Positions 9,728-31,114 of a stretch of 32,000 bases of DNA are shown one piece after another. Position numbers and translations under genes: made by a program. Position 1 is the stretch's first letter. Each line of letters begins with the position of its first letter. The DNA is from Candidatus Scalindua sp. (GTDB taxonomy: Bacteria; Planctomycetota; Brocadiia; Brocadiales; Scalinduaceae). The notes under the pieces were generated by a model. That model made no database searches and was not told where the DNA came from. It was given only the letters and a program-made list of their open reading frames with translations. The stretch lies in assembly GCA_031316235.1 (NCBI GenBank), contig JALDRA010000001.1:990001-1022000 (forward strand), read 5' to 3'.

Positions 9728-11665
9728 CTACGCTGTCCCTGTCCTTACTTTTTTATAGTACATTAACCACTCAAGCAGAAGAATAAAAGGTGTAAGCATG
9801 AGGAGATATCTGCCAAATTCATTCTTTGTGTCTTCAATGGTTGTTGAGATTTCACTCTCTTCAAAACTGAGTTCCAGATTGTCTGTTGTTTCGGACATAA
9901 GGTCAGACTCATTATCATCGAAAAGATTTGCCACAAATTTTCTCTGGATGTTCGATCCAGAAATTGTATACTCACCTACATATTCTACCTTATTAAGAAC
10001 CACATGTTCTTTTACATCATTTTTCAAACGATAAATCTCTGTTTCTCCTTTAGGGTTCAGCAATTTAATCTCACCCTGCTTTATATAGTTCACAAGATAT
10101 TGCCCACCGGTTAATATCCTGAGACTCTCTTCTTTTTCATATGGATTCAGCCATTCAATGATATTTAGGATCATGATGAGAATCTTCAGATTTTTCGACT
10201 CAGAAAAGTCAAAGCTACTCAAGTCAAAACCAAACACCATTGTTCTTTTCCCCTCATTCTCACCGGCAAAAGCTACCGTAGCATCCTTCGGTGTTCCTGC
10301 TATTTTTATAACGGGAGTTGACCAGGCAGGAGGCTTCATCTCAACAACATCCTGAATGCTTAGATTATCAAGATGGTCCAGGTGCCGCATTGTAGGATGT
10401 GTGCTGTCCCAGTCAATTATCCGGGCATTCTTACTTGACCTCATGATGGTGAAGAGAGAGCGAAGGAAAAGATTGTCTTTCCCCTTAATTTCTGATTCAG
10501 GATATGATGCAGCTGCCGGGGGTGACACATAGAGAGAGTTTACGTCCGGATTCATATTCGGCAGATATCTATGAAAGATTGCAACATCATAGTTACCGGT
10601 AACACCATGCACATAATCGGTTGTCTTAATTCTCTTCAACCTTATACGGTGTGTACTATTCTGTATTTTCTCTAATTCATTTTCAAGCCTGCTGTCATCT
10701 GAAACCAATAGAATTTTGATTGGTTTTATTTCATTTACTATCGCGTAAGCAGTATTATCAACTGAAAGAAAATCATCTGTCTCAATTTCAGCCTTTAAAA
10801 TTCCGGATGCAAACAGATTGTCAATTCTTAACGTTTTATGCTCACCGCTGAGTAATTCTATTTCTATTTTTTTAATCAATTCGTTGTTCAATAACACGTT
10901 AACAGTGACATCTTTATTCCCCTGTGAATAGTTTTTTACCGTAACATACGCCTCACGTTCTGTGTAATCCTTGAACATATCCTGGTATATATCAAAGGAA
11001 GTGATGGCAACGTTTTCGGTATTTTTCCCATAGCTCGTGAATTGTATATTGTACCCCTCCTGTCGAGAATAATCTATTGAGGACGGAGACCGGTCTGTTA
11101 ATACATAAATCTCACCTCTCTCAACATTTTTAAGAAAAGAAATACCAAGGCTGACACCTTCTTCGAGATTTGTCCCCGTATCTGTCGGTCTCAGATTCTC
11201 TAATACTTTGTTCAACTTCTGCCTGTCTTTTGTAAATTCAGTCAGAATCCTGGAAGAAGAGTCTGTAGACACAACCATCATCATATCCCCTTGGCCCAAT
11301 TTACCGACCATCTTGAGGGCATCAGCCTTTGCCTGGTCAAAACGGGAACCGTTGCTTTCCAATGTCTGCATGCTGGCGGATGAATCAATAATAAGGATGA
11401 CATTTTTCCCGGAAATATTGATAATGCTGGATTTCAGGTATGGACGAGCAAGAAAAAATACAAGAAGGAGTATCAAAAGCAGCTGTAGCAGAAAGAGAAT
11501 ATCGATTCTGAACAGCCTGCTCCGTACCACATCCTCTTTTAATACCAACCATGGCATCATGCTTGGTACTTCTACCACATTCTTTTTTTTACTGAAAAAA
11601 TAGAGGAGTACAACAAACCCAAATAATGATAGATAACCAAAGGCTATCAGATTAATAAATCCCAT
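9728..11665 (-). CDS. BatA-N (double-TM aerotolerance-regulator N-terminal) + vWA domain protein
   Basis: The N-terminus MGFINLIAFGYLSLFGFVVLLYFF...VEVPSMMPW is typical of the BatA_N double-TM domain. MIDAS motif LIIDSSASM. There is a C-terminal TM helix. Confidence 0.8.
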   Translation of the reverse strand: MGFINLIAFGYLSLFGFVVLLYFFSKKKNVVEVPSMMPWLVLKEDVVRSRLFRIDILFLLQLLLILLLVFFLARPYLKSSIINISGKNVILIIDSSASMQTLESNGSRFDQAKADALKMVGKLGQGDMMMVVSTDSSSRILTEFTKDRQKLNKVLENLRPTDTGTNLEEGVSLGISFLKNVERGEIYVLTDRSPSSIDYSRQEGYNIQFTSYGKNTENVAITSFDIYQDMFKDYTEREAYVTVKNYSQGNKDVTVNVLLNNELIKKIEIELLSGEHKTLRIDNLFASGILKAEIETDDFLSVDNTAYAIVNEIKPIKILLVSDDSRLENELEKIQNSTHRIRLKRIKTTDYVHGVTGNYDVAIFHRYLPNMNPDVNSLYVSPPAAASYPESEIKGKDNLFLRSLFTIMRSSKNARIIDWDSTHPTMRHLDHLDNLSIQDVVEMKPPAWSTPVIKIAGTPKDATVAFAGENEGKRTMVFGFDLSSFDFSESKNLKILIMILNIIEWLNPYEKEESLRILTGGQYLVNYIKQGEIKLLNPKGETEIYRLKNDVKEHVVLNKVEYVGEYTISGSNIQRKFVANLFDDNESDLMSETTDNLELSFEESEISTTIEDTKNEFGRYLLMLTPFILLLEWLMYYKKVRTGTA

Positions 11666-11719
11666 ACATTTTCATTGTTTCGTAACGTTATCCCGGGAGT
11701 GAAGCGATCCGAGGTAACG

Positions 11720-12625
11720 TTACCTTACAAACCCGATTCTCGGTAACTCCCGTAAAATAAAATCTTCAAACTTGATATGTGTCTTCGCTAACGAGTATAT
11801 TATCTTATTAACCCTGCAAAAGCGCTGGAGCTGACTATTATGCTCTTCTAACGAGTTTTTGTATCGCCTTCGATTAGCTTCGGAAAAAACGACAGACCTC
11901 TTTTCACTTGTCTCCACGTCAACGATATGGCCTTTCTTGATCTTTGAAAATGGGTCTAACTCCGTCTCACCTAAAATTTGGATCACCTTGATATCGTAAT
12001 TCTTATATCGTAAAAAGTTTAAACCTTTCCTGTAGACTTCCGGCTCCAGCATGAAATCAGATATCATCACAACAGTTCCCCTCGTCCGCTTTACGTCGTA
12101 TACGTATTTAACGATAGAATTAAAAAAGTCCAGTTTTCCTTCCGGGACAATGTTGTCTAAAAAGTCTGAGATCTTGAAGATATTTTCCTTCTTCTGGAAA
12201 AATGGTGTCCGGGTATTGAGAACAGAGTCTCCATCCGCCAGTTTCGCTACCCTGACACTATTTTTGCTTGATAATGCTATATAACTTAATGCAATCGCAA
12301 GATTCTTTGCATAATCAAATTTATTATCTTCTTTCGGGAACAGCATTGACCTGCTGGAATCCATAAGGATATGAACAGAAAGCTCTACCTCTTCTTTAAA
12401 CGTTTTTATCAGCAGCTTGTCAAGTCGTCCATAAATATTCCAATCGATATATCGAAAATCGTCTCCGGGAACATATTCCTGGTAATCGGCAAATTCGATA
12501 CTGGATCCTCTCTTGTTCACCATTTCATAATTCCCTTTTCGGCTACCAAGGTAAGTTTTCCTGCATCCAATACAGAGCGATTCAAGCTTTCGCAGAAAAG
12601 TAGCATCAAAAATATCCGCAAGCAT
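11720..12625 (-). CDS. DUF58 domain protein
   Basis: Hallmark FADYQEYVPGDDFRYIDWN motif, and the position immediately downstream of a MoxR ATPase. Confidence 0.85.
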   Translation of the reverse strand: MLADIFDATFLRKLESLCIGCRKTYLGSRKGNYEMVNKRGSSIEFADYQEYVPGDDFRYIDWNIYGRLDKLLIKTFKEEVELSVHILMDSSRSMLFPKEDNKFDYAKNLAIALSYIALSSKNSVRVAKLADGDSVLNTRTPFFQKKENIFKISDFLDNIVPEGKLDFFNSIVKYVYDVKRTRGTVVMISDFMLEPEVYRKGLNFLRYKNYDIKVIQILGETELDPFSKIKKGHIVDVETSEKRSVVFSEANRRRYKNSLEEHNSQLQRFCRVNKIIYSLAKTHIKFEDFILRELPRIGFVR

Positions 12626-12714
12626 ACGATTTTCCCCCTCAGTTACCCATTTAACATTTTATGAAAACTTCGAACAGTAAACGCTGTATCCTGAAATCTG
12701 ATACAGGATACCCA

Positions 12715-13764
12715 CTATCTACTTTCCTTCGCCTTCTCCAGTATACTCTCTATAATGTCTTTTGATTTAATACTATCAGCATCTGCTTCAAAATTTAAGA
12801 GTAATCTGTGATTAAGGGAATCCACCGCAACCTTATCAACGTCATCATAGCTTATGTTTGCCCTGTTGTCTAAAAGGGCCCTCACCTTTGCTGCCAAGAC
12901 AACAGACTGTGCACCACGCGGGCTTGATCCATAGGTTACATACCGTTTAATAAGATCTATCGTATCATCTCTCCCTGATGTCTGACTGCTGATCTCTGGA
13001 CTATCTGGATGTGTCATCGATATTATTTTTACAACATAATCCTCTACTTTCGATGAGACCAAGACATTTCTCACCAATTTTTTCATTTCTGCAACCTTTG
13101 TTGCAGCGTTTTTTTGATCAAAAAGTGGTTGAATAGCATATTTTTCGTTGACAGTTGTCTGCCTTAATATCTGCTTCAGTTCATTACTATCTGGAAAAGA
13201 GAGATTGACTTTAAAGAAAAATCTATCCAGCTGGGCCTCCGGTAAAGTGTACGTACCTTCCATCTCAATTGGATTCTGGGTTGCCAAAACAAAAAAAGGG
13301 TTTACTAATATATGGGTTTTGCCGGAGACCGTGACCTGTCCTTCTTCCATAGCCTCTAACATGGCAGATTGTGTTTTTGGCGTTGCACGATTGATTTCGT
13401 CCGCAAGAATAATGTTAGAGAATATGGGGCCTGCGGAAAATTCAAACTCCTTTCTCCCCTCACTCCTTTCCACAACTATCTGAGTACCAATAATATCGGC
13501 TGGCATCAGATCAGGAGTAAATTGTATCCTGTTGAAATTGAAGCCGAGCGCCTTGCTTAAAGACTTTACAAGTAAAGTTTTACCCAGACCGGGAACCCCT
13601 TCAAGAAGAACATGTCCTCCAGCAAAAAAAGCTGTCAGGACAGCCTTTATGATTTCTCTATTTCCTACTATCTCTTTGCCAATCTCATCACACAGACCAT
13701 TGAATACTTTCTGAAAAATCGCTATCTCTTCCTTTATGCCGATCTCATCTTCATTTTTATGCAT
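12715..13764 (-). CDS. MoxR-family AAA+ ATPase
   Basis: Walker A LLEGVPGLGKT, Walker B/sensor ILADEINRATPKTQSAMLEAMEE, and the C-terminal YGSSPRGAQ lid motif. Confidence 0.9.
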   Translation of the reverse strand: MHKNEDEIGIKEEIAIFQKVFNGLCDEIGKEIVGNREIIKAVLTAFFAGGHVLLEGVPGLGKTLLVKSLSKALGFNFNRIQFTPDLMPADIIGTQIVVERSEGRKEFEFSAGPIFSNIILADEINRATPKTQSAMLEAMEEGQVTVSGKTHILVNPFFVLATQNPIEMEGTYTLPEAQLDRFFFKVNLSFPDSNELKQILRQTTVNEKYAIQPLFDQKNAATKVAEMKKLVRNVLVSSKVEDYVVKIISMTHPDSPEISSQTSGRDDTIDLIKRYVTYGSSPRGAQSVVLAAKVRALLDNRANISYDDVDKVAVDSLNHRLLLNFEADADSIKSKDIIESILEKAKESR

Positions 13765-13858: not shown

Positions 13859-16800
13859 CTACTCCTTCTCAATATAAATCTTCTTGATTATTTCTTCATA
13901 TTCCAGTGGTATCGAAGTATTTTCTATTGCATCATCTTCTGCCTGCCGGGTACTGAGTTCTGCCGTATCATCGTAACCAACAGTTGGTAACCTCCTTTTC
14001 ACAGAGGCCTCTCCCTTCCCAGAAGATATTGATTCCCTTTTTGTTCCACTTTCGTCCCTGGTTCCCCTTACATTTAATCCAAACTTTTCAGCATCTTCAG
14101 AAGATTCAATTTTTTCAGGTTCTGAAGAGTAGAGTTCACCCCCCGGTTGACTTCCACCTGGTCCGGAGGTTTCTTTGATGTTTCCCTGCAACTCCCTGAC
14201 CCCTTTTTGTTCCTCTGATTCGATACTTCTCTGTTTCTGCCGGGCTAAATCCTTCATATCATCTTTTATGGACGCATCTCCTCCTTCAGAACTACTCTCA
14301 CCAGATGTATCAACCCCCATTTGCTTCTCAAGGTCTGATATTTGAGTAGAGAGCTCTTTCATTTGATTAGAGATTTCTCTCTTTAAATCAGCAACATCCA
14401 TCTTTTTGCCTTGAGAACCAGATTTCTGTCCGGTTTCCAGGCCCGATGTCTGACCCGCCTCTGCTCCCGCCTTCTGACCTGCTTCACTCCCAGCTTCCTG
14501 CCCGGCTTGTTGGCCCGCCTCTGCACCTGCTTGCTGACCGGACTCTGATCCGGCTTGTTGGCCTGCTTCACTCCCAGCCTTCTGACCCGCTTCTGAACCC
14601 GCCTGCTGGCCTGCTTCCGTTCCGGCTTGTTGACCTGACTCTGCCCCTGCTTGTTGACCAGCTTCTGTTCCCGCCTGCTGGCCTGCTTCACTCCCAACCT
14701 CCTGACCCGCTTCGCTTCCGGCTTGTTGGCCTGCCTCAGTTCCTGCCTTCTGGCCTGCTTCTGAACCCGCCTGCTGGTCCGCTTCACTTCCGGCCTGTTG
14801 GCCCGCATCTGCACCTGCCTGCTGACCGGACTCTGATCCGGCTTGTTGACCCACCTCAGTTCCTGCCTGCTGGCCTGCTTCACTCCCAGCTTCTGTTCCT
14901 GCTTGTTGGCCTGGCTCTACTCCAGCCTCCTGGCCTGCCTCTGTTCCTGATTTCTGTCCTGTCTCTGCCCCTGCTTGTTGCCCGGACTCGGATCCGGTTT
15001 GTTGACCCGCTTCTGAACCCGCCTGCTGGCCTGCTTCACTCCCAGCTTCCTGACCCGCTTCCGTTCCGGCTTGTTGGTCCGCCTCTGCACCTGCTAGCTG
15101 ACCGGACTCGGATCCGGCTTGTTGACCCACCTCAGTTCCTGCCTCCTGCTCTGCTCCACTCCCAGCTTCCTGCCCGGCTTCTGAACCTGCTTGTTGGCCT
15201 GATTCTGCTCCCGCCTCCTGACCTGCTTCCATTCCGGCTTGTTGGCCTGCCTCAGTTCCTGCCTTCTGCTCTGCTCCACTCCCAGCTTCCTGCCCGGCTT
15301 CTGTTCCCGCTTGTTGGCCTGATTCTGCTCCCGCCTTCTGCCCGGCTTCTGTTCCGGCTTGTTGGCCAGCCTCTGCACCTGCTTGCTGACCGGACTCAGA
15401 TCCGGTTTGTTGACCCGCTTCTGTTCCTGCCTTCTGGCTCGCTCCGCTTCCGGCTTGTTGGCCCGCCTCACCTCCAGCTTCCTGGCCTGCCTCTGTTCCT
15501 GATTTCTGTCCTGCCCCTGCCCCTGCTTGTTGCCCGGACTCGGATCCGGTTTGTTGACCCGCTTCTGAACCCGCCTGCTGGCCTGCTTCACTCCCAGCTT
15601 CCTGACCCGCTTCCGTTCCGGCTTGTTGACCCGCCTCTGCACCTGCTTCTCTTCCGGCTTGTTGACCCGCTGCACTTCCCGCCTGCTGACCCGCTCCGCT
15701 TCCGGCTTGTTGGCCCGCATCTGCCCCTGCTTGCTGACCGGACTCGGATCCGGCTTGTTGGCCTGCCTCAGTTCCTGCCTTCTGCTCTGCTGCACTCCCC
15801 GCCTGCTGGCCCGCTTCACTTCCGGCTTGTTGGCCCGCATCTGCTCCCGCCTTCTGGCCTGTTTTACTTCCAGGTTCCTGACTGTCATCTGATCCTGCCT
15901 TCTGTCCTGCCTCTGCCCCTGCTTGTTGACCAGCTTCTGTTCCCGCCTGCTGGCCTGACTCTGCACCAGCTTGTTGTCCAGCGTCTGAACCAGCCTTTTG
16001 TCCGGCGTCTGTCCCCTCCTGTTGTTCGTCCTCTGAACCGGATTGTTGTCTGCTTTCACTACCTGGCTTTTGATCGGTTTCTGAACCCTCCTGTTGTTCA
16101 GTATCTGTACCTTCCTGTTCTCCAGACTCTGAGCTCTCCTGCTGTTCCGCTTCCATACCCGATTTTTCTCGCGTTGTTTCACTTTGTGGAGAACCGGAAG
16201 TATCCTTTGATGGGGATGATTTACTCTCCTCTTCTTGCCCCGACTTATCCTGTTGACCACCAGCCTGGTCTTTGTTGACATCTTCTATAGGAATATCAAT
16301 TGGAGGAGGCGAACTCTCTTTGTCTTTGTTTGACATGAACAGTTGTGCAAGTTTTTGCAACAATTTCGATTTCGGCGCCCTGGGTATCTTTTCCTCCTCT
16401 TGACTTTCAGGCGGTTTTTGATCAGGAGTCTCTTTCTCTTGAGCCAGAGCATTCTCCGTCTTTGGCTGCTCCTGCTCTTTTTTTTGACTTTCAGACGGTT
16501 TTGCTTCAGACTTTTCTCTCTCCTTTTGAGAAACCTCCGCTCTCTTTTCCTCCTCACTCTCTTTTCTCTCCGCTGGTTCCGTGTCTCTTTCTGCCGTCTG
16601 GTTTGGTTGTTCCTCTCTCTGCTGGTTTTCTTGTTTATCCACGTCAGAAATCTCTGCACCCTTACTCTTGTCTTCACTGCCAGGTTTCGTTGTATTATCC
16701 AGATTATTCAGAGTATTGTTAAGGTTACTCAGCAGCTCAGAAACCTCTTCTTCTAACGTCTTTGTTTCATCCGGCCGTTCGCCCATTTTTGACAGAGCCT

Positions 16801-17599
16801 CTTCCTCAGCTTTATCCTTTTGCTCCCCTAACCGGCTTTTATCTACTCCCCCCTGCCCTTGTTTCGATTTCTCGTTCTTGGCATCCGCTGGTTCACTCTC
16901 TTCCCGTTCACGCTGAGACTCCTCAGAACGCTCTTCCTGTGCAGCTATCTGCTCTTTGTCTCCAGGTTGAACCGTCTCCTTTTCACTCTCTTTTGAGCCC
17001 GGTATCTCAGTGACTGAATCTTTTATCTCTTTGACAATTTTCTCTGTTTCTTCTGGATACATGAAGGGAAGCAGGAGTAGTATTACGAGTAATATAGCAA
17101 CAGGAACTAAAAGTTTTGTTACCGCGGGAAACTTGTGTGGAATGGCCGCCTTTATACCTTTATCATCAAGTTGAGTTGTAATGTCGGAAACAAGCAGATC
17201 TAAAAACCTGTTTGACTCTCCCTGATCAGCATACTCCAGACCGGTAACAAGCCGCTCCTTAAAATGCATTTCTCCGTCTAACAGGCCCGCCGCCTCCAAT
17301 TTCCCGATCCAATTGATAATAATTAATGTAAGTGAGACAAAAAAATAGATCGTGAATCCTGATATCAGGATAATGTACACATAATGGGGTACTTCGATAA
17401 ATTTGCAGGCAATAAGTGTGGCCAGAGCCATCGTCAAACCGATTGCCATGACCGTAAAAAATGCCTTCTCACACCTGAAAATATTATACCTGAAGCGAGC
17501 CTTCTCTAATCTCTCTTCAATCTGCTTTTTAGAAGAATACGCATCTCGGCTTTTATCTTTATTTTCACCTATCACCATAGTTTTTTCCTTATTATTCAC
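13859..17599 (-). CDS. 1246-aa membrane protein with a giant disordered E/K-rich and GQQAGxEA-repeat spacer (first gene of the MoxR operon)
   Basis: Three predicted TM helices within the first ~180 aa. These are followed by ~330 aa of E/K/S/Q-rich sequence, ~580 aa of 8-aa G/Q/A/E repeats and a ~190-aa C-terminal region ending IPLEYEEIIKKIYIEKE. This is the only frame with a plausible start, TM anchor and non-repetitive termini. Confidence 0.75.
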   Translation of the reverse strand: MNNKEKTMVIGENKDKSRDAYSSKKQIEERLEKARFRYNIFRCEKAFFTVMAIGLTMALATLIACKFIEVPHYVYIILISGFTIYFFVSLTLIIINWIGKLEAAGLLDGEMHFKERLVTGLEYADQGESNRFLDLLVSDITTQLDDKGIKAAIPHKFPAVTKLLVPVAILLVILLLLPFMYPEETEKIVKEIKDSVTEIPGSKESEKETVQPGDKEQIAAQEERSEESQREREESEPADAKNEKSKQGQGGVDKSRLGEQKDKAEEEALSKMGERPDETKTLEEEVSELLSNLNNTLNNLDNTTKPGSEDKSKGAEISDVDKQENQQREEQPNQTAERDTEPAERKESEEEKRAEVSQKEREKSEAKPSESQKKEQEQPKTENALAQEKETPDQKPPESQEEEKIPRAPKSKLLQKLAQLFMSNKDKESSPPPIDIPIEDVNKDQAGGQQDKSGQEEESKSSPSKDTSGSPQSETTREKSGMEAEQQESSESGEQEGTDTEQQEGSETDQKPGSESRQQSGSEDEQQEGTDAGQKAGSDAGQQAGAESGQQAGTEAGQQAGAEAGQKAGSDDSQEPGSKTGQKAGADAGQQAGSEAGQQAGSAAEQKAGTEAGQQAGSESGQQAGADAGQQAGSGAGQQAGSAAGQQAGREAGAEAGQQAGTEAGQEAGSEAGQQAGSEAGQQTGSESGQQAGAGAGQKSGTEAGQEAGGEAGQQAGSGASQKAGTEAGQQTGSESGQQAGAEAGQQAGTEAGQKAGAESGQQAGTEAGQEAGSGAEQKAGTEAGQQAGMEAGQEAGAESGQQAGSEAGQEAGSGAEQEAGTEVGQQAGSESGQLAGAEADQQAGTEAGQEAGSEAGQQAGSEAGQQTGSESGQQAGAETGQKSGTEAGQEAGVEPGQQAGTEAGSEAGQQAGTEVGQQAGSESGQQAGADAGQQAGSEADQQAGSEAGQKAGTEAGQQAGSEAGQEVGSEAGQQAGTEAGQQAGAESGQQAGTEAGQQAGSEAGQKAGSEAGQQAGSESGQQAGAEAGQQAGQEAGSEAGQKAGAEAGQTSGLETGQKSGSQGKKMDVADLKREISNQMKELSTQISDLEKQMGVDTSGESSSEGGDASIKDDMKDLARQKQRSIESEEQKGVRELQGNIKETSGPGGSQPGGELYSSEPEKIESSEDAEKFGLNVRGTRDESGTKRESISSGKGEASVKRRLPTVGYDDTAELSTRQAEDDAIENTSIPLEYEEIIKKIYIEKE
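14411..16160 (-). repeat. In-frame 24-nt tandem repeat array (about 70 units by length/period) inside the 1246-aa gene
   Basis: Plus-strand units look like CCGGCTTGTTGGCCCGCCTCTGCA and encode AGQQAG(S/T/A)E variants. The region is markedly more GC-rich than the flanks. All six frames lack stop codons for long stretches. Confidence 0.9.
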
Positions 17600-21738: not shown

Positions 21739-21944
21739 TCCCGTGATCCAGTGATCTGCAGAATGATAGAAGATTGCCGATTCTTATGCAAAGTAAATTT
21801 GTAAGAAATCCCTTCCCAGTTCTTTTTTCAAGACAGCCCCCTTGATTACAATATAGATTACAGATCTGACACAAGAGCACCTGAAGGGAAATCCTTTGGT
21901 TGAGCCACTATTTTGGTAACTTTTCGAAAGTGACAAATTGTATA

Positions 21945-22325
21945 ATGTATACAGGCATCGATATTATTGAGGTTAAGAGGATTGAACGGGTCTTTATTTC
22001 CCATATGGGATTTCTCAGAAGAGTTTTCACGGAAGATGAGGTGAAATATTGCCAATCGAAGAAAAACTGTTTCCAGCATTATGCAGCACGTTTTGCATCA
22101 AAAGAGGCCGTTCTCAAGGCGTTTGGAACTGGTTTAAGAGAAAAAATGAAGTGGACCGACGTAGAAACTCTCAACGAAGAGTCTGGAAAGCCTTATATAA
22201 ATCTCTATGGCAGGGTAAAAGAGTTGGCGATTGAAAAAAATATATGTGAGATTTCAATCTCACTGTCACACTGCAAAGAATACGCAGTTGCACACGCATT
22301 ATTGGTTACACGCAACAAGGAATAA
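21945..22325 (+). CDS. acpS: Holo-[acyl-carrier-protein] synthase (4'-phosphopantetheinyl transferase, AcpS type)
   Basis: 126 aa with MYTGIDIIEVKRIERV and FASKEAVLKAFGTG, both typical AcpS motifs. An alternative TTG start at 21900 has a better SD-like AAGGGA, but it adds a non-conserved extension. Confidence 0.85.
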   Translation: MYTGIDIIEVKRIERVFISHMGFLRRVFTEDEVKYCQSKKNCFQHYAARFASKEAVLKAFGTGLREKMKWTDVETLNEESGKPYINLYGRVKELAIEKNICEISISLSHCKEYAVAHALLVTRNKE

Positions 22326-22503
22326 TCAACAGATTCAGCGTAATAAGCACATACGTTAAAAAAAGATTAAAACATGAACTTGATAATGGGTGAAAATAGT
22401 GTAAAATACCATCCGGTTATTATCCGTTATCTGTAACTTACACTATTTGTCAGGTATATTGTTTCCTTAAATAGGTTTGCCGGACTTTGCGATTGGTCAA
22501 AAA

Positions 22504-23973
22504 ATGAGAAAGTTAATCCTCATAAATCCGCACCCCGTTGGTAATGTCGGGGAGGAGAATGTTTCTGTATTAAATCAGATGCCCGTAAACCTTGGCTATC
22601 TGAAGAAACTGACACCGGAACATTGGGATGTTGATATTATCGACGAAACTCAAGAACTGGCAGTGGATGAAAAAGGAGAGAATCTGCGTTTTGAAAAACC
22701 TGATCTGGTCGGAATTACCTCTGTCAGCTATCAGGCTCACAGGGCATATCAGATAGCTGCAGCATGCAGAAAAAACGGAATTCCTGTTATCATGGGAGGT
22801 GTACATGCGACAAGTTACCCAGAAGAAGCTGCACAATATGTTGATTCTGTCATAATAAGAGAAGCTGTCACGATTTGGGCAGAGATAATTGCTGATTTTG
22901 AGAACAATGCCCTGAAAGAATCATATGATGGCGGCCTCACCCCTATGGAGATGTACAGAGATCTCTACTCAGATCGGGAATTTTTAAAGAATAAGTATAA
23001 GTATCGGTATTCGGGTATCATCACAACTGCCGGATGTCCCTTTAGTTGTGAATTTTGTTCAGTTCCTCAGTTTCAAGGGAAAAAATATCGAGAAAGACCA
23101 ATCGATGATGTATTAAATGAGCTGGAGAAAATTAAAGGAGAGTACAGGGGACTTATCCTGACCGATGAAAATTTCTATGGGCACAGTAAAAAATCAAACG
23201 AAAGAGTACGCAGTCTCTTTAAGAAGATGGTAGAGAGAGGTATATACCAGAATTGGTTTGGTTTTACTTCGTTGAACATTTATCAAGATGATGAGACATT
23301 AGAATATATGGTGAAGAGTGGTTGTGTCGGAGTTCTCATCGGTATTGAATCTATTAATGAAGAGGCGTTAAAGTCAATGAATAAGGGCGTCAATTTGCGT
23401 ATAACCGTGGAAAAATATAAAGAAGCGGTGAAAAATATCCGAAAGCATGGCCTTGCAGTATGGGGTACCATGGTTTTCGGTAATGATAGTGATACTACGG
23501 AAGGTTTTAAAGAAGTGGTTGATTTCATTGTAGATGCAAAGATCGACATTATGACATGCGGTATTTTATGCCCTTTTATTAATACCCCCCTGTACAATAG
23601 ACTTAACGGAGAGAATAGACTCTTCAGGACAAATTTCCCTGAAGATTGGATCTACTATACTTCACATCATCTTACCTATGTACTATCAAGACTCTCTCTT
23701 CAGGAGTTTATTGACGGTCTGGAGTATGTCTTTGAGAAAATATATTCAACTGATGTGATCAGGGAAAAATTCCGAAATGCGAAAACAGAGTTAAATAATC
23801 TTAACGCTGCCATGTTTGCCTTCAGGGTGAATCTGGACTGGCAATATGTCTTTCATCATTTATTGGAAAACTTAAAGCAACTGCAGGCTTCAGGGGCGTA
23901 CGAGGAGGCACGTGAACGCTACAAAAAGATGAAAAGCAGTAAAGATATCGGTTTAGCAAGTGTTAAGTCTTGA
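22504..23973 (+). CDS. B12-binding-domain radical SAM protein (class B rSAM)
   Basis: N-terminal cobalamin-binding-like Rossmann segment (LVGITSVSYQAHRAYQIAAACRKNGIPVIMGGVHATSYPEEA), followed by the radical SAM cluster motif TTAGCPFSCEFCSV (CxxxCxxC). The start is chosen at ATG 22504 (MRKLILINP). Confidence 0.85.
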   Translation: MRKLILINPHPVGNVGEENVSVLNQMPVNLGYLKKLTPEHWDVDIIDETQELAVDEKGENLRFEKPDLVGITSVSYQAHRAYQIAAACRKNGIPVIMGGVHATSYPEEAAQYVDSVIIREAVTIWAEIIADFENNALKESYDGGLTPMEMYRDLYSDREFLKNKYKYRYSGIITTAGCPFSCEFCSVPQFQGKKYRERPIDDVLNELEKIKGEYRGLILTDENFYGHSKKSNERVRSLFKKMVERGIYQNWFGFTSLNIYQDDETLEYMVKSGCVGVLIGIESINEEALKSMNKGVNLRITVEKYKEAVKNIRKHGLAVWGTMVFGNDSDTTEGFKEVVDFIVDAKIDIMTCGILCPFINTPLYNRLNGENRLFRTNFPEDWIYYTSHHLTYVLSRLSLQEFIDGLEYVFEKIYSTDVIREKFRNAKTELNNLNAAMFAFRVNLDWQYVFHHLLENLKQLQASGAYEEARERYKKMKSSKDIGLASVKS

Positions 23974-24026
23974 GCAGATACTATTTTTCTTCCTCTCCAC
24001 TATCCGGTTACAAGGTTTCTCAAAGA

Positions 24027-24146
24027 GTGGCTGAACGAAAACTACCCATCTACCGCGTTGCTGTAATAATTCCGTAATCCTCAAGTACATGGGTAGATTG
24101 CGGTTACGAAATCAGCACACCTTGTATCGGGGCAGTTTCCGTTCAA
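24027..24146 (+). promoter_or_regulatory. Conserved intergenic element, copy 1 (upstream of the KS gene)
   Basis: About 120 nt aligning by eye at roughly three quarters identity with 29614-29727. It contains an identical 18-mer ATAATTCCGTAATCCTCA (24066-24083). It ends 134 nt before the KS ATG. The function is unknown. Confidence 0.45.
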
Positions 24147-24280
24147 GTATGAAGTGGTGAGGAACAAATCCGCAGAATATTTTCTCGGAATCAGGCAGGG
24201 ACGAGCATATGGTAATTTTTTTACTACCTGAGTCTTGAGATGTCTCTCATATCGGTTATATTATTTCTGAAGGATGAATC

Positions 24281-25489
24281 ATGTCAAAAGTCGTTGTTAC
24301 GGGTCTGGGATTAGTATTAGCCAATGGTATTGGGGTGAAAAATGCATGGGAAGCGCTTATTCACGGCAAAGATGGCTCAGGGGATGTCACATCATTTGAC
24401 ACCTCACAGTATAAGATTCATCGTGCATGTGAAGTTAAGGATTTCAAGACAGATGTAATATTTGAAAATGAAACTCCTGCCAATACGATCCACAAATATA
24501 CCTATTCAGCAGCCAGGGAAGCATTAAGAGATAGCGGTTTACATGACATCGCCAACTATAATTGCGAAAGGTTTGGTATTGCAATTGGAACGCTTGCAGG
24601 TGAACTCCCCCCATTTGAATATCTGTTACGCAATTCCCCTGAAGACAAAGCTAATGGTTTTGACATGAATATCGCTCTAACATACCCACCATCCTCAATA
24701 ACTTCCCTGCTCTCTGAAGATTTTGGTTTTGAAGGCCCCACTATGGTTTCATTAAATGCATGTTCTTCCGGCAACCACGCTATCGCATGGGCACATGATC
24801 TCCTGTTAAACGGGAAGGTTGATGTGATGCTCGTCGGCGGCGGTGAGTTGATACCGCAAACAGAATTTACCCATTTTCACAATTTAAAGGCTCTCGCTCC
24901 TGAAAAATGTCAGCCTTTTGACAGAGAGAGAAAGGGACTCATTATTGGAGAAGGTGCAGGAATTATGGTAATAGAAACCCTCGATTTTGCAAAAAAAAGA
25001 GGTGCGGGTATTTATGCGGAACTAAGGAGCTCTGGAATGAGTTGTGACGGCCACCACATGACGGCTCCACATCCTGAAGGCGCCGGTGCGATCAGGGCGA
25101 TGCTGGAAGCACTATCAGGTGCCCGGCTCTCATATAAGGATATTGATTATATTAGCGCACATGGCACAGGAACTCCCTTGAATGATCGAATGGAAACGAT
25201 GGCAATTAAATCCGTCTTTAAGGAAAGAGCAAAGAAGATTCCCGCTAGTTCAATAAAATCCATGATCGGCCATACAATGGGTGCAGCGAGCGCAATAGAA
25301 TCGGTCGTAAGCTGTCTCTCGATCAGGAATAACATAATCCCCCCTACGATAAACTATGAAACACCTGATCCTGAATGTGATTTAGATTATGTGCCGAACG
25401 AAGGAAGAGAACTCAAGGTAAATTGCGTATTGAATAATTCCTTCGCATTCGGCGGAAACAATGTCACGAATATTTTCAGCAGATTTTAG
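24281..25489 (+). CDS. Beta-ketoacyl synthase (FabF/KS-alpha type, catalytically competent)
   Basis: Active-site Cys in SLNACSSGNHAI and both His in ISAHGTGTPLND and KSMIGHTMGAASA. Good SD (GAAGGA) upstream of the ATG. Confidence 0.9.
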   Translation: MSKVVVTGLGLVLANGIGVKNAWEALIHGKDGSGDVTSFDTSQYKIHRACEVKDFKTDVIFENETPANTIHKYTYSAAREALRDSGLHDIANYNCERFGIAIGTLAGELPPFEYLLRNSPEDKANGFDMNIALTYPPSSITSLLSEDFGFEGPTMVSLNACSSGNHAIAWAHDLLLNGKVDVMLVGGGELIPQTEFTHFHNLKALAPEKCQPFDRERKGLIIGEGAGIMVIETLDFAKKRGAGIYAELRSSGMSCDGHHMTAPHPEGAGAIRAMLEALSGARLSYKDIDYISAHGTGTPLNDRMETMAIKSVFKERAKKIPASSIKSMIGHTMGAASAIESVVSCLSIRNNIIPPTINYETPDPECDLDYVPNEGRELKVNCVLNNSFAFGGNNVTNIFSRF

Positions 25490-25532
25490 TACACATTCTC
25501 AAACGCATCATTTTTTATGCGTTAGAAAATAA

Positions 25533-26765
25533 ATGAATAAAAAAACTGTAATTACTGGTATTGGTATTGTATCTCCAATTGGTATCGGCCATCGAGAGTT
25601 CTGGAAGAATCTTGTTTCGGGTAATTCCGGCATCACCCCAATGGAATCACTGGATCTTTCAAAATATGAATGCAGAAATGGGGCAGAAGTAAAGACGTTA
25701 AATCCGGCAGATTTTCTCGGGCACAAAGGGCTGAGATACCTGAACAAGGGAACTAAATTTCTTGCTTCCAGTATAAAATTGGCATTAGATGATGCAGACT
25801 TGAACATAGATGATGAGATATCATACCAGACGGGAATTTTAATAGGAACATCCCTGGGTAATTTTTCTCAAACCACAGATTATTTTCATGATATTGTCCG
25901 GGAGAACCCTTCCGGACTCTCACCGATGCAGAGCTATGATGTTGCACTGAATTCTTCAATTAACTACGCCTCCGTCTTTTTCAAGATAAAAGGTTTTGCC
26001 AGGACGATCTCTTCCGGCTTTACTTCGGGAATTGACGCAATCGGCAATGCACATAAATTAATTCAGAATGGGAAAGCAGACATAATCATAGCTGGTGGTG
26101 TTGAACAGATATCGCTGGACCTCTACATGATCTTTTTAATGAGAAAGATGTTGTCTGGTTCAAATGGCGGGGGCAAAGAGATCAGCATGCCGTTTGATAA
26201 AAGACGAAACGGCTTCATCATGAGTGAAGGCAGTTATGTATTCGTAATGGAAAATCTTGATTTTGCCTTGAGTCGCGGCGCAAAGGTGTATGGCGAAGTA
26301 TCGGGGTTTGGGACAATTTTTGCCGGAAACAAAAATTATGATACGAGAAAAAGATTCGAAAAAGCCACGTCCGCAATGCGGGCATGTACGGATGATGCAA
26401 AAGTATCGCTTCAGGATATCGACCTTATTAATGCCAGCGGGAATTCAGACCAATCATCAGACTTTATTGAGGCACAGGCTATTTGCAAACTGTTTGAAAC
26501 AAGAGGTAATGAAATACCGGTATGCGCAGTTAAATCTATTGTGGGAGAGTGCTATGGTGCCTCCGGAGCAATGCAAACGGCAGCATCAGTACTCTCGATT
26601 CAAAACAGTCTCATACCCCCGACAATCAACTGTGAAGAAAAAGACCCCGAGTGCAGCATAAACATAATTCATCAGAAACAAGCAGGAAACATAAGCACGG
26701 CGCTTGTTAATTCGTTTGATTACACTGGAAACAACTCCTGTTTGATTTTAAAGAAATATGAGTAA
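25533..26765 (+). CDS. KS paralogue lacking the catalytic triad (chain-length-factor / KS-beta-like)
   Basis: It aligns colinearly with the upstream KS, but ACSSG -> GFTSG (Cys->Phe), SAHGTGT -> NASGNSD (His->Ser) and IGHTMGA -> VGECYGA (His->Glu). The start lies 43 nt after the KS stop. Confidence 0.8.
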   Translation: MNKKTVITGIGIVSPIGIGHREFWKNLVSGNSGITPMESLDLSKYECRNGAEVKTLNPADFLGHKGLRYLNKGTKFLASSIKLALDDADLNIDDEISYQTGILIGTSLGNFSQTTDYFHDIVRENPSGLSPMQSYDVALNSSINYASVFFKIKGFARTISSGFTSGIDAIGNAHKLIQNGKADIIIAGGVEQISLDLYMIFLMRKMLSGSNGGGKEISMPFDKRRNGFIMSEGSYVFVMENLDFALSRGAKVYGEVSGFGTIFAGNKNYDTRKRFEKATSAMRACTDDAKVSLQDIDLINASGNSDQSSDFIEAQAICKLFETRGNEIPVCAVKSIVGECYGASGAMQTAASVLSIQNSLIPPTINCEEKDPECSINIIHQKQAGNISTALVNSFDYTGNNSCLILKKYE

Positions 26766-28803
26766 GTTATTTGACCCCATTAAAATAGGCAGTATTGAAA
26801 TTAAAAATAGACTTGCCATGTCTGCAATGGATCTAGGATTCACCTCGGATGGTTCGGTAAACGAGCGGTTTATTGATTTTTATGTCGAAAGAGCCCGGGG
26901 AGGAGTAGGTTTAATCGTAATAGGAGGATGTTATCCTGAGATGAATGGGAAGGTATGGAAGAGTATCATCGGCCTTGACAAAGACAGCTTTATACCGGGA
27001 TTAAAAAAGTTTGCAGATACGATGCACGAGAATGACGTTAAAGTTGCCGCCCAGCTCCTTCATGGAGGAAGAAGCGCCTCCTCTTTCTTTACAAAGATGC
27101 GCCCTGTTTCAGCATCAAGCCTGGCCCACGTCAACATAAAACAGGCACCACACGCTCTCACCATACCAGAGATCAAGAAGGTGATCAGGGGCTTTGCCGA
27201 TGCAACTGTACGATTAAAGAAGGCGGGCTTTGATGCGGTTGAGATCCATGGAGGTATGGGCTACCTGATTAATCAATTTCTTACCAGGGCAACGAATGAG
27301 AGGAATGACAGATATGGAGGGAGCCTTCAAAAGAGGATAAATTTTGCCAGGGAAATTGTGATTGCAATAAAAGAAAAAACCGGTAAACGTTTTCCCATTA
27401 TATTCCGCTTATCCGGTGACGATTTCATTGATAACGGGCTCAAGATTGATGAGAGTATTGAGATTGCGAAGGAACTGGAAAAGGCGGGTGTAGATGCATT
27501 CAATATATCTCCCGGTTGGCATGAGAGCCGAATTCCCATAATGCTTATGTCCATCCCGAGAATGTCCTACATCTTCTTGTCTGAGAAGATGAAAAACCAG
27601 GTAAATGTACCCGTCATTGGATCGGTAAGAGTAAACGATCTGGCATTAGCTGAAGAGATTCTGGATAATGGACAGTCAGACTTGATATCGATAGGAAGGC
27701 CCCTCATCGCCGACCCGGAATTACCCAAAAAGTACAGGAAGAAACAGTTCAATGATATCAGAAGGTGTATCGCCTGCAACCAGGGCTGTTTTGATTCACT
27801 GCTAAACTTCAAATCGGTAAGCTGCCTCTATAATGTCAGGGCCGGAAGAGAGCGGGAATTAAAGATCAGGAAGGCCGCGAAAAAGAAAAAGGTAATGATA
27901 ATCGGAGGTGGTCCTGGTGGTCTCGAAGCTGCAAGGGTTGCCGCCCTGCGAGGACATGATGTTTATTTATATGAGAAGAACAGCGTTCTTGGCGGACAAC
28001 TGAGATATGCCTCTATGCCCCCTGGAAGGGAAGAGATAGAAAACGTCATTACGTTTCTCGAGACACAGATAAAAAAATTAAACGTAAAAATTCAATTACA
28101 TGAAAAGGCTGATATTACGGCGATTAAGAAGTTAAAACCAGATGCCGTAATTGCCGCTATTGGAGGCAGCCCCATCATACCTCCTATTCCGGGCATAAAA
28201 GAGAAGAATGTTGTTGTTGCTGAGGAAATATTTGATAAAAAGGTAAAAGTCGGAAAAGAGGTGGTCATTATCGGCGGAGGGACAATTGGATGTGAGGTTG
28301 CCTTGCATATTGCAAAAATGGGAGCAATGAATCCTGAAGTAGCGTGTTATCTTCTGAGAAACAGGGTCATTAATGGTCAGGAGGCTGCAGAATATACCTC
28401 GCGGGGAAGAAGGAATATTACGATCCTGGAAATGAAGAACAAGATCGGTGGCTCTTTTGGCATCTCAACCCGATGGGTCATCATAAAGCAGGTGAAGGAT
28501 GCGGGGATTGAGTGTGTGACCGGTTTGAATATTAGAGAGATTATGACGAAAAAAAATGGAACAAGATCGACAGGAGTAGATTCACAAGATGCAAAAATCT
28601 GCGTAACCTTTGAAAAGGAGAAAAAAATACACTCGATTTTTGCCGATACCGTCGTCATAGCAGCTGGATACAAACCTAATCAAGACCTTATCAGTAAACT
28701 GGATGGAAAAATAGAAGAATTTTATAAAATAGGAGATTGCGTAAAGGTTCGGACTGCCCTTGAAGCCATTCATGAGGGATTTGAAGTCAGTTTAAAATTA
28801 TGA
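26758..28803 (+). CDS. FadH / 2-enoate reductase family flavoprotein (OYE-like TIM barrel + 4Fe-4S + FAD/NAD(P)H domains)
   Basis: N-terminal FDPIKIGSIEIKNRLAMSAM and HGGMGYLINQFL (old-yellow-enzyme fold), CIACNQGC (Fe-S), and the dinucleotide folds IIGGGPGGLEAA and VVIIGGGTIGCEVA. The start overlaps the CLF-like stop by 8 nt. Confidence 0.85.
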   Translation: MSKLFDPIKIGSIEIKNRLAMSAMDLGFTSDGSVNERFIDFYVERARGGVGLIVIGGCYPEMNGKVWKSIIGLDKDSFIPGLKKFADTMHENDVKVAAQLLHGGRSASSFFTKMRPVSASSLAHVNIKQAPHALTIPEIKKVIRGFADATVRLKKAGFDAVEIHGGMGYLINQFLTRATNERNDRYGGSLQKRINFAREIVIAIKEKTGKRFPIIFRLSGDDFIDNGLKIDESIEIAKELEKAGVDAFNISPGWHESRIPIMLMSIPRMSYIFLSEKMKNQVNVPVIGSVRVNDLALAEEILDNGQSDLISIGRPLIADPELPKKYRKKQFNDIRRCIACNQGCFDSLLNFKSVSCLYNVRAGRERELKIRKAAKKKKVMIIGGGPGGLEAARVAALRGHDVYLYEKNSVLGGQLRYASMPPGREEIENVITFLETQIKKLNVKIQLHEKADITAIKKLKPDAVIAAIGGSPIIPPIPGIKEKNVVVAEEIFDKKVKVGKEVVIIGGGTIGCEVALHIAKMGAMNPEVACYLLRNRVINGQEAAEYTSRGRRNITILEMKNKIGGSFGISTRWVIIKQVKDAGIECVTGLNIREIMTKKNGTRSTGVDSQDAKICVTFEKEKKIHSIFADTVVIAAGYKPNQDLISKLDGKIEEFYKIGDCVKVRTALEAIHEGFEVSLKL

Positions 28804-29600
28804 AAGACATACGAATGAACAGGGGTGACAATTCCGGATATCAGCACCTTGAGTATGAAGAGGTAGAGCTTAAGAACAACAGGTATGCCGGAGTCATCAA
28901 GATAAGGAAACCTCCCAGGAACTCTATTGGTTCATGGCTGTTAGATGCACTCTATGACAGGATCGATGCATATGAAAGTGATGATAAGATAGCAGCCATT
29001 ATTATCACAAGCAGCATACGGGGAGTCTTTTGTGATGGTGCGGACAGAAACGAACTGTTCGGCCCATGGATCTCGGGTTTGGTGGCCGAAAAAAACTACG
29101 ATAGATTTATGAGGGCACATGAGATGTATCTGGAGATAGAGAATTGCCAAAAACCTCTTATTGCCGCCCTCAACGGTGTTACCATAGGGGCAGGTCTTGA
29201 GCTCGCCCTTTTATGCGATTTCCGTATTGCTTCTGAAACCGCGTTTTTTAGTCTACCTGAGGCAAAACCTGAATTGAGCATAATACCGGGACTTGGAGGA
29301 ACTATCAGGCTGCCAAAGGTGATAGGTACCGCCCGGGCCAAGGAGATGTTGTATTCAGGTAAGATGATTCGTGCGAAAACAGCGCTTCAATGGGGTTTGG
29401 TGAATAAACTCGCACCTGTGAAGGGTGTCCTTAAAGAGGCGCTCGATTACGCCGAGGTACTGGCACAAAACAGCAGCAAGGCAATAAAGACAATGAAAAA
29501 GTGTATTAACTTTGCAATGGACCACGATACAAGGGAGGGGATAAAATATGAAGTTGGCCTCTTTGCAGAAATTATGCGGCAGAAGCTTGTAAAGACCTAG
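28800..29600 (+). CDS. Enoyl-CoA hydratase/isomerase (crotonase) family protein
   Basis: LIAALNGVTIGAGLELALLCDFRIA and FSLPEAKPELSIIPGLGGTIRLPK. Both canonical catalytic Glu positions appear to be present. ATGA overlap with the upstream reductase stop codon. Confidence 0.85.
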   Translation: MKDIRMNRGDNSGYQHLEYEEVELKNNRYAGVIKIRKPPRNSIGSWLLDALYDRIDAYESDDKIAAIIITSSIRGVFCDGADRNELFGPWISGLVAEKNYDRFMRAHEMYLEIENCQKPLIAALNGVTIGAGLELALLCDFRIASETAFFSLPEAKPELSIIPGLGGTIRLPKVIGTARAKEMLYSGKMIRAKTALQWGLVNKLAPVKGVLKEALDYAEVLAQNSSKAIKTMKKCINFAMDHDTREGIKYEVGLFAEIMRQKLVKT

Positions 29601-29825: not shown

Positions 29826-30563
29826 ATGAAAGATAAAGCAGCAATAGTAACAGGCGGCACTAGAGGTATCGGTCGGGCTATAGTCCTGGAGTTAGCAAGA
29901 AATGGGTGTAATGTTGCCTTTAATTATGCAAAGAGCGGGGATCTGGCAAAAGCCCTTGTAACAGAAGTCGAGTCACTCGGTGTCAAGGCCCTGGCAAAAC
30001 AGGCAGACGTGGCAGATTTTGAAGCAGCAAAGAATATGGTGACTGAAGTTAAGGAAGAATTCGGGCAGATTGATTTTTTGATCAACAATGCCGGTGTGAC
30101 CAGGGACAAGCTCCTGGCATTAATGAAAGAGAGCGACTGGGATGATGTGATCAACACCAACCTGAAAAGTGTCTACAACTTTTCCAAGGCAGTAATTATG
30201 ACCATGGTCAAACAGAAGAGCGGGAGCATACTCAACATTACGTCAGTAAGTGGAATTGCCGGAGTGGCGGGACAGACTAACTACTCCGCATCAAAGGCTG
30301 GCGTCATCGGCTTTACTAAGGCCCTGGCCAAGGAAGTTGGAAAGGCAAAAATAAATGTAAATGCTATTGCGTGTGGATTCATTGAGACCGATATGACAGC
30401 TTCACTCCCGGAAGAGTATAAGAATAAGATGATAGATATGACGTCTCTCAAACGATTTGGGAACCCTGAAGAGATAGCCAGGATTGCTTCATTCATGCTC
30501 TCAGAAGACGCAAAATATATTACCGGACATGTTCTCACCGTTGATGGTGGATTGGCATTATAA
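29826..30563 (+). CDS. fabG: 3-oxoacyl-[ACP] reductase (SDR)
   Basis: TGGTRGIGRAI cofactor motif, NNAG, catalytic Ser (ITSVSG) and YSASKAG. 245 aa. Strong SD (GGAGG). Confidence 0.9.
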   Translation: MKDKAAIVTGGTRGIGRAIVLELARNGCNVAFNYAKSGDLAKALVTEVESLGVKALAKQADVADFEAAKNMVTEVKEEFGQIDFLINNAGVTRDKLLALMKESDWDDVINTNLKSVYNFSKAVIMTMVKQKSGSILNITSVSGIAGVAGQTNYSASKAGVIGFTKALAKEVGKAKINVNAIACGFIETDMTASLPEEYKNKMIDMTSLKRFGNPEEIARIASFMLSEDAKYITGHVLTVDGGLAL

Positions 30564-30802: not shown

Positions 30803-31114
30803 ATGATTTTTTTATTAAAGGTACAAATAAAAAAAATACCAGATGTCCCCGTTAAAGATTTTCTGGGCATCGTGGTCAAGGAGTGGGAATATTTCTTGAG
30901 GATGAAGAGAAGGGGCAAGATCCTTGCCGGTGGTAAATTGGCCGGTGGAAGAGGGGCCGCCGCCATTATTGAGGCTGACTCTAATGAGGAGCTGGACCAG
31001 ATCGTTGCAAACCTGCCGCTTTTTCCTTTTTTTACCGATATTGAAATCACCCCCCTGGTTTCTACGGAAAAAGCCCTGACCGACGTTAAACGGGTTCATT
31101 CGCTCATGAAGTGA
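30803..31114 (+). CDS. Muconolactone delta-isomerase-like (dimeric alpha+beta barrel) small protein
   Basis: 103 aa. LPLFPFFTDIEITPL matches the conserved LPLFPYMDIEV region of muconolactone isomerases as I recall it, and the N-terminal MIFLLKVQIK matches their MLF.V.M start. Strong SD (AAGGAG). Confidence 0.55.
   Translation: MIFLLKVQIKKIPDVPVKDFLGIVVKEWEYFLRMKRRGKILAGGKLAGGRGAAAIIEADSNEELDQIVANLPLFPFFTDIEITPLVSTEKALTDVKRVHSLMK

Follow-up and report, generated by a model that had tools for sequence, protein, structure and literature searches.

Introduction

The biosynthesis of ladderane lipids is unsolved, and anammox bacteria are not yet genetically manipulable. In Kuenenia stuttgartiensis, the gene cluster kuste2802-2805 encodes AcpS, a B12 radical S-adenosylmethionine (SAM) enzyme, FabF, and a 'non-canonical FabB' (PMC2649909; PMC4790861). 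The last of these proteins, Kuste2805 (CAJ73556), appears in the table of Rattray et al. from 2009 with the residues Phe163/Asn298/Asn300/Lys328/Glu333/Gln342 (PMC2649909). Kuste2804/2805-type proteins were found in 2016 to be insoluble when they were expressed separately (Javidpour et al., PMC4790861). Here, we describe KS2 (positions 25533-26765, + strand; 410 aa, ATG start), an inactive ketosynthase (KS) paralogue, or KS-beta, of the Kuste2805 type, together with KS1, the active ketosynthase (KS-alpha) encoded just upstream of it. Both genes lie in a stretch of 32,000 nucleotides of Candidatus Scalindua sp. (GenBank assembly GCA_031316235.1, contig JALDRA010000001.1, positions 990,001 to 1,022,000), which we call the window, and all coordinates below are positions in it unless another locus is named. 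Scalindua is a genus of marine anammox bacteria.

A related pair is amxFabF2/amxFabFmut from the ladderane 'Cluster I' of Brocadia fulgida, which forms a heterodimer similar to those of a KS and a chain-length factor (CLF) (bioRxiv 10.64898/2026.05.19.726425; PDB 9s5h/9s5i). The protein amxFabFmut is also known as KustE3606, Broful02170, or Scabro02228. According to the same preprint, amxFabF2 and amxFabFmut are inactive alone, but they co-purify and jointly decarboxylate malonyl-ACP (ACP, acyl carrier protein). A helix-loop-helix at residues 110-140 has an ordered structure in the heterodimer but not in a homodimer of amxFabFmut. The acyl tunnel is lined by Phe135 and Val139 of the dead subunit, which affect the chain-length preference, and in the Phe135Gly/Val139Gly mutant the discrimination among C6, C8, and C16 probes is lost. 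On the alpha side, the tunnel wall is made of Ala110, Ala164, Phe203, and Met337, with Phe394 as the gate (bioRxiv 10.64898/2026.05.19.726425).

From the letters of the window, the original prediction had made KS2 a CLF-like partner of the upstream ketosynthase. In type II polyketide synthases (PKSs), the CLF is a KS paralogue without activity whose gene immediately follows that of KS-alpha, and the tunnel at the heterodimer interface sets the length of the product. Where active ketosynthases have the catalytic Cys, classical CLFs have Gln and are thus of the 'KSQ' type. We consider KS2 to be a catalytically dead, FabF-derived KS-beta that most likely forms a 1:1 heterodimer with KS1, encoded in a conserved anammox operon and distinct from the Cluster I pair.

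Results

The N-terminal and C-terminal ketoacyl-synt domains of Pfam are both full-length in KS1 and in KS2, and BLASTP aligns the two proteins end to end with 33% identity (E 2e-60). NACSSG, SAHGTG, and IGHTMG of KS1 are found opposite SGFTSG, NASGNS, and VGECYG of KS2, which reproduces exactly the three blocks that had been aligned by eye, and Cys161, His294, and His331 of KS1 stand opposite Phe163, Ser302, and Glu339 of KS2. In an independent HMMER alignment with Bacillus subtilis FabF (4ls5), Phe163, Ser302, and Glu339 again line up with the catalytic Cys, His, and His of that enzyme. The by-eye alignment is therefore not shifted, and the replacement of Cys/His/His by Phe/Ser/Glu in the original prediction is borne out by both methods. 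The codons of these residues are at 26019-26021 (Phe163, the catalytic Cys position), 26436-26438 (Ser302, the first catalytic His position, which is Asn in most relatives), and 26547-26549 (Glu339, the second catalytic His position), all on the + strand. The active-site Lys is kept in KS2 as Lys334 (26532-26534, + strand), and Gln348 (26574-26576, + strand) takes the place of the Glu of active ketosynthases.

The same replacements are found throughout the relatives of KS2. In a survey of 120 Scalindua homologues with at least 70% identity, the Cys position is Phe in 120/120, the first His position is Asn in 117 and Ser in 3, and Lys and Glu are present in 120/120 each at the remaining two of the four positions. 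A protein from a metagenome-assembled genome (MAG) of Candidatus Scalindua matches KS2 with 100% identity. The close relatives of KS2 are all from Scalindua, and Phe is also found at the Cys position in 38/38 homologues from other Brocadiales. The IPPTIN and DPEC blocks are kept in KS2, as had been noted, and >150 homologues, from Scalindua and from other Brocadiales, have an uninterrupted, full-length reading frame. Comparison with a second Scalindua locus gives dN = 0.185 and dS of about 1.9 for KS2, and hence dN/dS of about 0.1; for KS1 and for the radical SAM gene, dS is saturated, so there is no dN/dS figure. From this ratio it follows that KS2 is no pseudogene, and the original description of a maintained paralogue, and not a decaying one, agrees with it and with the conservation in the 120 homologues. 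The loss of the triad in KS2 is real, fixed, and under purifying selection; it is the result of neither chance nor decay. The name 'beta-ketoacyl-ACP synthase family protein' in the public record is thereby corrected, since KS2 cannot be a synthase. Neither the window-type KS-beta nor the Cluster I KS-beta reaches any NCBIfam model.

The AlphaFold model of the KS2 monomer is confident, with a mean predicted local distance difference test score (pLDDT) of 87 and a predicted TM-score (pTM) of 0.89, and its top structural match is B. subtilis FabF, with a TM-score (TM) of 0.89. Values of pLDDT <50 are limited to residues 109-140, which are the helix-loop-helix that is disordered in the crystal of the amxFabFmut homodimer and ordered in the heterodimer. 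The best 60 sequence matches and the best 50 structural matches of KS2 are FabF-type enzymes or KS-alpha subunits, with zero CLFs. Iga11, which was reported as the closest structural relative of amxFabF2 (bioRxiv 10.64898/2026.05.19.726425), is among both the sequence and the structural matches of KS2.

The top PDB sequence matches of the two window proteins are chains of one entry, 9s5h_C for KS2 (E 5.5e-88) and 9s5h_B for KS1 (E 3.9e-122). We linked this entry to the heterodimer of the preprint by matching the residue numbering of its chains, and the signature of 9s5h_C, V-N-Y-G-K-E-Q-R, is the published row for Kuste3606. KS2 and amxFabFmut have much in common: both are full-length, FabF-derived, dead ketosynthases encoded beside a live one, both keep the Lys and have Glu and Gln at 333/342, and both have the partner-dependent helix-loop-helix. 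However, KS2-type proteins are only about 37% identical to amxFabFmut, and the Cys position of the Cluster I KS-beta is Val, Thr, Ile, or Glu, whereas it is Phe in KS2. Among 111 Cluster I-type proteins, we counted Thr in 55, Val in 46, Glu in 7, and Ile in 3. The preprint gives Thr for amxFabFmut in Scalindua brodae and Val elsewhere (bioRxiv 10.64898/2026.05.19.726425). Thr is not a general feature of Scalindua, because the Cluster I copy in the Scalindua genome of the window itself (P0438) carries Val.

The two types of KS-beta occur together. A contig of 4,149,782 bp is the recorded source of both P0438, the Cluster I copy, and P0001, the window protein. A contig of 2,284,559 bp carries both P0444 (Cluster I) and P0004 (window-type), and each KS-beta type is represented by a single protein in S. 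japonica and likewise in S. rubra. Their loci differ, since Cluster I is composed of amxACP, amxFabZ, FabF2, FabFmut, a phytoene-desaturase-like (PDH) gene, and a radical SAM gene, whereas the window has a different gene set, in which no ACP, FabZ, or PDH gene was found. The intact Cluster I arrangement was found in L053 (Scalindua rubra-like), L005, and L082. Neighbour-joining trees separate the KS-beta subunits into a window-type clade (92.5% bootstrap) and a Cluster I clade (100%). The KS-alpha partners split likewise, with 100% bootstrap for the window type and 100% for Cluster I, so that the trees mirror each other. All of the dead subunits tend to group (75.5%). A phylogeny with FabF had been suggested along with the original prediction, and in our tree the whole alpha and beta family lies apart from the sampled canonical FabFs with 96.5% bootstrap, the sample being one without CLF sequences. 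Membership of KS2 in the amxFabFmut orthogroup was rejected, as the locus, the clade, and the tunnel residues all differ. KS2 is thus a paralogue of amxFabFmut, and KS1/KS2 is a second anammox KS-alpha/KS-beta pair beside that of Cluster I.

The tunnel residues of the two pairs are alike on the alpha side and different on the beta side. A106/A160/F199/M333/F390 of KS1 are identical to the equivalent residues of amxFabF2. In the helix-loop-helix of KS2, the alignment places Ser134, Val137, and Ala138 (codons within 25932-25946, + strand) at the equivalents of Phe135/Thr138/Val139 of amxFabFmut, so that Ser/Val/Ala in KS2 are to be compared with Phe/Thr/Val in Cluster I. Among window-type proteins, Ser and Ala at 134 and 138 are present in 120/120 from Scalindua and 38/38 from other Brocadiales, and Phe and Val at the equivalent positions are present in 111/111 Cluster I proteins; positions 134 and 138 were counted in this wide survey, and Val137 was read in a smaller set. 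Because the Phe135Gly/Val139Gly mutant of the paralogue lost its discrimination among the probes, we infer from these residues that the tunnel of the KS1/KS2 pair is roomier and that its substrate range differs from that of Cluster I, with substrates that are probably longer or bulkier. By extrapolation from the mutants of the paralogue, then, KS2 would be a dead subunit that shapes the tunnel. Neither KS-beta clade varies at Lys334, Glu339, Gln348, Asp310, or Glu313. Beside the Lys that is kept, Glu and Gln replace His333 and Glu342, a swap that seems to preserve charge and may maintain a buried network.

KS-alpha adjoins KS-beta in every locus that we examined across the Brocadiales. In a representative search, fusions of an active and an inactive ketosynthase, in the same order as KS1-KS2, account for 33/35 relatives of about 800 aa. 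The N-terminal KS of these fusions has Cys-His-Lys-His, and the C-terminal KS is without the triad. The double-length relatives are among P0123-P0237 and are about 750-930 aa long.

The order acpS, B12 radical SAM gene, active fabF, and deviant KS gene of kuste2802-2805 is the order of the window, and it is also found in L001, from another Scalindua, in L002, a MAG of a groundwater Brocadiales, and in L084, a GWA2_50_13-like Brocadiales contig. These three loci have the same gene order as the window together with a divergent upstream gene for a MATE transporter. The signature of the window-type clade, F-N-N-x-K-E-Q, corresponds to that of Kuste2805, and KS2 itself reads F-S-N-D-K-E-Q, so that its single deviation from the Kuste2805 signature is Ser for Asn298, as in 3/120 relatives. 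At position 392, KS2 has Tyr where Kuste2805 has Phe. By synteny and signature, KS2 is probably the Scalindua counterpart of Kuste2805. Among the cluster members listed, none carried the name of Kuenenia, Brocadia, or Jettenia. While the published Kuenenia cluster comprises four genes, the window operon continues into genes for a flavin and Fe-S oxidoreductase, a hydratase, FabG, and a small MIase-like protein.

The first gene of the operon encodes AcpS, the holo-ACP synthase and kuste2802 counterpart, at 21900-22325 (+ strand). It matches Pfam ACPS (E 5.8e-18) and NCBIfam acpS (94.6 bits, cut-off 59.8), and it is syntenic in L001, L002, and L084; its true start is probably near 21945, at MYTGIDII. 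The B12-binding radical SAM enzyme at 22477-23973 (+ strand), the kuste2803 counterpart, has the Pfam B12-binding and Radical_SAM domains and probably starts near 22504. Its identity is 81% to the protein in L001 and 71% to that in L002. It does not reach the cut-off of any NCBIfam model, and this holds for TIGR04072 'rSAM_ladder_B12', the model named for ladderane-type lipid clusters, against which it scores 75 bits where the cut-off is 360. The radical SAM enzymes encoded at 12706-14169 of L053 and 2193-6712 of L081 gave no TIGR04072 match at E 1e-40. As the B12 radical SAM enzyme of neither anammox cluster reaches TIGR04072, this model must describe a different family.

A gene-free spacer of 307 nt (23974-24280) precedes the gene of KS1. 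It contains no + strand open reading frame (ORF) of at least 40 aa, and there are zero Rfam matches in the window, this spacer included. The promoter-like site at 24235-24264, TTGAGA-16-TATATT, scores 10/12 as a consensus match only. The distance between the radical SAM gene and the KS1 gene is only about 15-115 nt in L001 and L002. KS1, the kuste2804 counterpart, is encoded at 24281-25489 (+ strand; 402 aa) and has the active-site residues Cys161/His294/Lys326/His331. The 43-nt gap between KS1 and KS2 (25490-25532) lacks an obvious Shine-Dalgarno sequence and holds an inverted repeat of 7 bp, AACGCAT ... ATGCGTT. The genes of the KS1/KS2 counterparts in L001 and L084 abut or overlap, with no 43-nt gap, and the overlap of KS-alpha and KS-beta in L084 is 4 nt.

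Downstream of KS2, a gene at 26758-28803 (+ strand) encodes a flavin and Fe-S oxidoreductase of the old yellow enzyme (OYE)/FadH type, which is 2,4-dienoyl-CoA-reductase-like (Pfam Oxidored_FMN, E 3.9e-69, and Pyr_redox_2) and syntenic in L001, L002, and L084. The beginning of this gene and the end of the KS2 gene share 8 nt, and KS2 is translationally coupled to it. The enoyl-CoA hydratase/isomerase (crotonase) gene at 28800-29600 (+ strand; Pfam ECH_1, E 5.1e-48) has a start that overlaps the preceding stop (ATGA); the gene is present in L001, L081, and L083 and absent in L002. FabG, the 3-oxoacyl-ACP reductase, is encoded at 29826-30563 (+ strand; NCBIfam TIGR01830, 313 bits, cut-off 297.75) and is also syntenic. 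The last gene, at 30803-31114 (+ strand; Pfam MIase, E 1.1e-13; syntenic in L001, L002, and L083), encodes a small protein of about 100 aa with the muconolactone isomerase (MIase) fold, a conserved last member of the window-type cluster. That this protein is a double-bond isomerase is only a guess.

Elsewhere in the window, a 1246-aa ORF on the - strand (13859-17599) encodes N-terminal membrane helices, a charged stretch rich in Glu, Lys, and Ser, and then about 85 tandem 8-residue units of GQQAGSEA, with a period of 24 nt. This repeat ORF has no Pfam match, and it accounts for the unusual base composition at 14-17 kb, where GC reaches 0.63 and the AT skew is -0.6. It heads an operon for a MoxR ATPase and DUF58, VWA (BatA-like), and TPR proteins at 4844-13764.

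Discussion

We strongly infer, by analogy with the solved paralogue and from synteny, matching trees, and the natural KS-alpha/KS-beta fusions, that KS1 and KS2 form a heterodimer. The match to 9s5h, the conserved adjacency, the mirrored trees, and the 33/35 fusions support the original prediction of a CLF-like partner of KS1 as far as the pairing is concerned, although KS2 is FabF-derived and does not belong with the CLFs of aromatic type II PKSs. In the mechanism that we propose, KS1 would do the chemistry, with acyl transfer to Cys161 followed by malonyl-ACP decarboxylation and condensation through His294 and His331, and KS2 would contribute the other half of the dimer. The helix-loop-helix of KS2 (residues ~109-140) would close over the acyl tunnel of KS1, placing Ser134/Val137/Ala138 in the tunnel wall. 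Phe163 may fill the pocket of the former nucleophile, and Glu339 and Gln348 beside Lys334 would form a buried charge network that serves stability and not catalysis. The Kuste2804/2805-type proteins are identified by this work as candidates for co-expression.

Several observations weigh against this assignment. Isolated amxFabFmut crystallised as a homodimer, which means that a KS-beta is able to exist on its own (bioRxiv 10.64898/2026.05.19.726425). The low pLDDT of the KS2 helix-loop-helix could have causes other than a missing partner. The preprint explains pairing by electrostatic asymmetry (bioRxiv 10.64898/2026.05.19.726425), and a count of charged residues in the interface segments of KS1 and KS2, the helix-loop-helix and the partner helix, showed no complementarity; the count is uninformative, as it gave the same for the solved pair. 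There is also no ACP gene to be found within the window. Finally, the orthology with Kuste2805 is based on a published residue table and gene order, not on direct alignment.

If KS2 acted alone instead, as a homodimer or monomer, it would have a noncondensing function, such as binding or sequestering acyl-ACP, serving as a scaffold, or being an enzyme that uses other residues. An example is the idea of Rattray et al. that deviant FabF paralogues bring a moiety that does not originate from fatty acid synthase (FAS) into the pathway (PMC2649909). The invariance of Lys334, Glu339, Gln348, Asp310, and Glu313 in both KS-beta clades may go beyond the need of a pure spacer, and besides forming homodimers in crystals, amxFabFmut has a PEG-occupied tunnel of its own within the heterodimer (PEG, polyethylene glycol; bioRxiv 10.64898/2026.05.19.726425). 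However, Phe, Asn or Ser, and Glu cannot replace the chemistry of Cys-His-His, the amxFabFmut paralogue showed no activity alone, and its helix-loop-helix is disordered without the partner. A paired role is suggested by the fusions and by the active KS that is strictly encoded next door, and we regard a solitary function of KS2 as unlikely.

KS2 could also be the dead partner of another ketosynthase, either amxFabF2 of Cluster I or the housekeeping FabF, with subunits mixed between the systems. Both types of pair are present in the same genome and share their alpha tunnel residues, and the two clusters are contiguous in L081, all of which would allow such mixing. Nevertheless, KS1 and KS2 are adjacent in all loci, and the alpha and beta trees split alike, as is expected if each beta subunit co-evolves with its own alpha subunit; an exchange of partners is quite improbable. 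That KS2 is a decaying, functionless duplicate of KS1 was rejected on conservation and deserves practically no credence, for although all three catalytic residues are gone and KS2 evolves faster than KS1 (71% and 84% identity to L001, respectively), the frame is intact at full length in the >150 homologues with invariant replacement residues, dN/dS is about 0.1, the fold is predicted with confidence, and the gene is translationally coupled to the next one.

Contig L081 (Logan SRR13254584, 56% GC, 1-10202) carries the tail of a Cluster I, with the genes for KS-beta, a phytoene-desaturase-like protein, and a B12 radical SAM enzyme, then two more B12 radical SAM genes, which makes three radical SAM genes in a row, and then the window-type KS-alpha, KS-beta, and enoyl-CoA hydratase genes. 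The contiguity of the clusters in L081 argues that the two systems serve one pathway. A tentative possibility is that the two heterodimers divide the labour, so that the Cluster I pair handles chains of about C6-C8 and the window pair, with its wider tunnel, accepts longer or bulkier, possibly cyclobutane-bearing, intermediates, and has its own B12 radical SAM enzyme, OYE/FadH, hydratase, and MIase-like protein. The two live/dead pairs, with the same alpha residues and different invariant beta tunnel residues, provide a testable handle on how chain length and shape are divided between modules.

Cluster I-like sets were also seen in L003, L004, L007, L009, L019, and L038, which come from Omnitrophota, Desantisbacteria, a delta-proteobacterial MAG, and 'Bacterium BMS3Abin15'; to our knowledge, none of these is a ladderane producer. 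Each of these sets outside anammox bacteria combines a dead KS with an active one, and genes for FabG, for ACP or FabZ, and for a desaturase-like protein accompany them to a varying extent. In these sets the gene of the dead KS is upstream of that of the active KS and the residue at the Cys position is mostly Phe. Among the matches listed, the window-type set occurs only in Brocadiales or on contigs of unassigned origin. Since the Cluster I-like sets extend beyond anammox and the window-type set is confined to these two sources among the matches, the KS1/KS2 pair might be more ladderane-specific than the Cluster I pair.

The principle of a dead KS encoded after KS-alpha is the same in KS1/KS2 as in type II PKSs such as that of actinorhodin, with the CLF ActI-ORF2 (PDB 1TQY chain B). 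A KS fold without the catalytic Cys, encoded beside an intact KS, is what is found for KS2, and KS1/KS2 would functionally be an arrangement of the KS/CLF type. The two differ in other respects: the nearest matches of KS2 in sequence and structure are FabF enzymes, in contrast to CLFs, and Phe is found in KS2 where classical CLFs have Gln. The context in the window is fatty-acid-like, with FabG, a hydratase, and a reductase, and unlike in aromatic type II PKS clusters, there is no cyclase or aromatase. Membership of KS2 among the aromatic type II PKS CLFs was rejected on these grounds, namely Phe163 instead of Gln, the FabF-type neighbours, and the FAS-like context. The Phe had been called atypical, which is correct relative to classical CLFs; within the KS-beta family as a whole, it is normal, as it is the commonest residue at the Cys position and has been on record in Kuste2805 since 2009.

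Reduced or polyene chains are made by the KS/CLF heterodimers of highly reducing type II PKSs, Iga11/Iga12 (ishigamide, PDB 6KXD) and ApeO/ApeC (aryl polyene). KS2 is tied to the former by the presence of Iga11 among its sequence and structural matches; in contrast to the Iga and Ape systems, the window has no polyene or amide tailoring genes, and ApeC is only half a KS, while KS2 is full-length. The first CLF in a fatty-acid pathway was reported for the Cluster I pair only (bioRxiv 10.64898/2026.05.19.726425). What the present comparison adds is that Scalindua and other Brocadiales keep two such live/dead pairs, which differ in the tunnel residues of the dead subunit.

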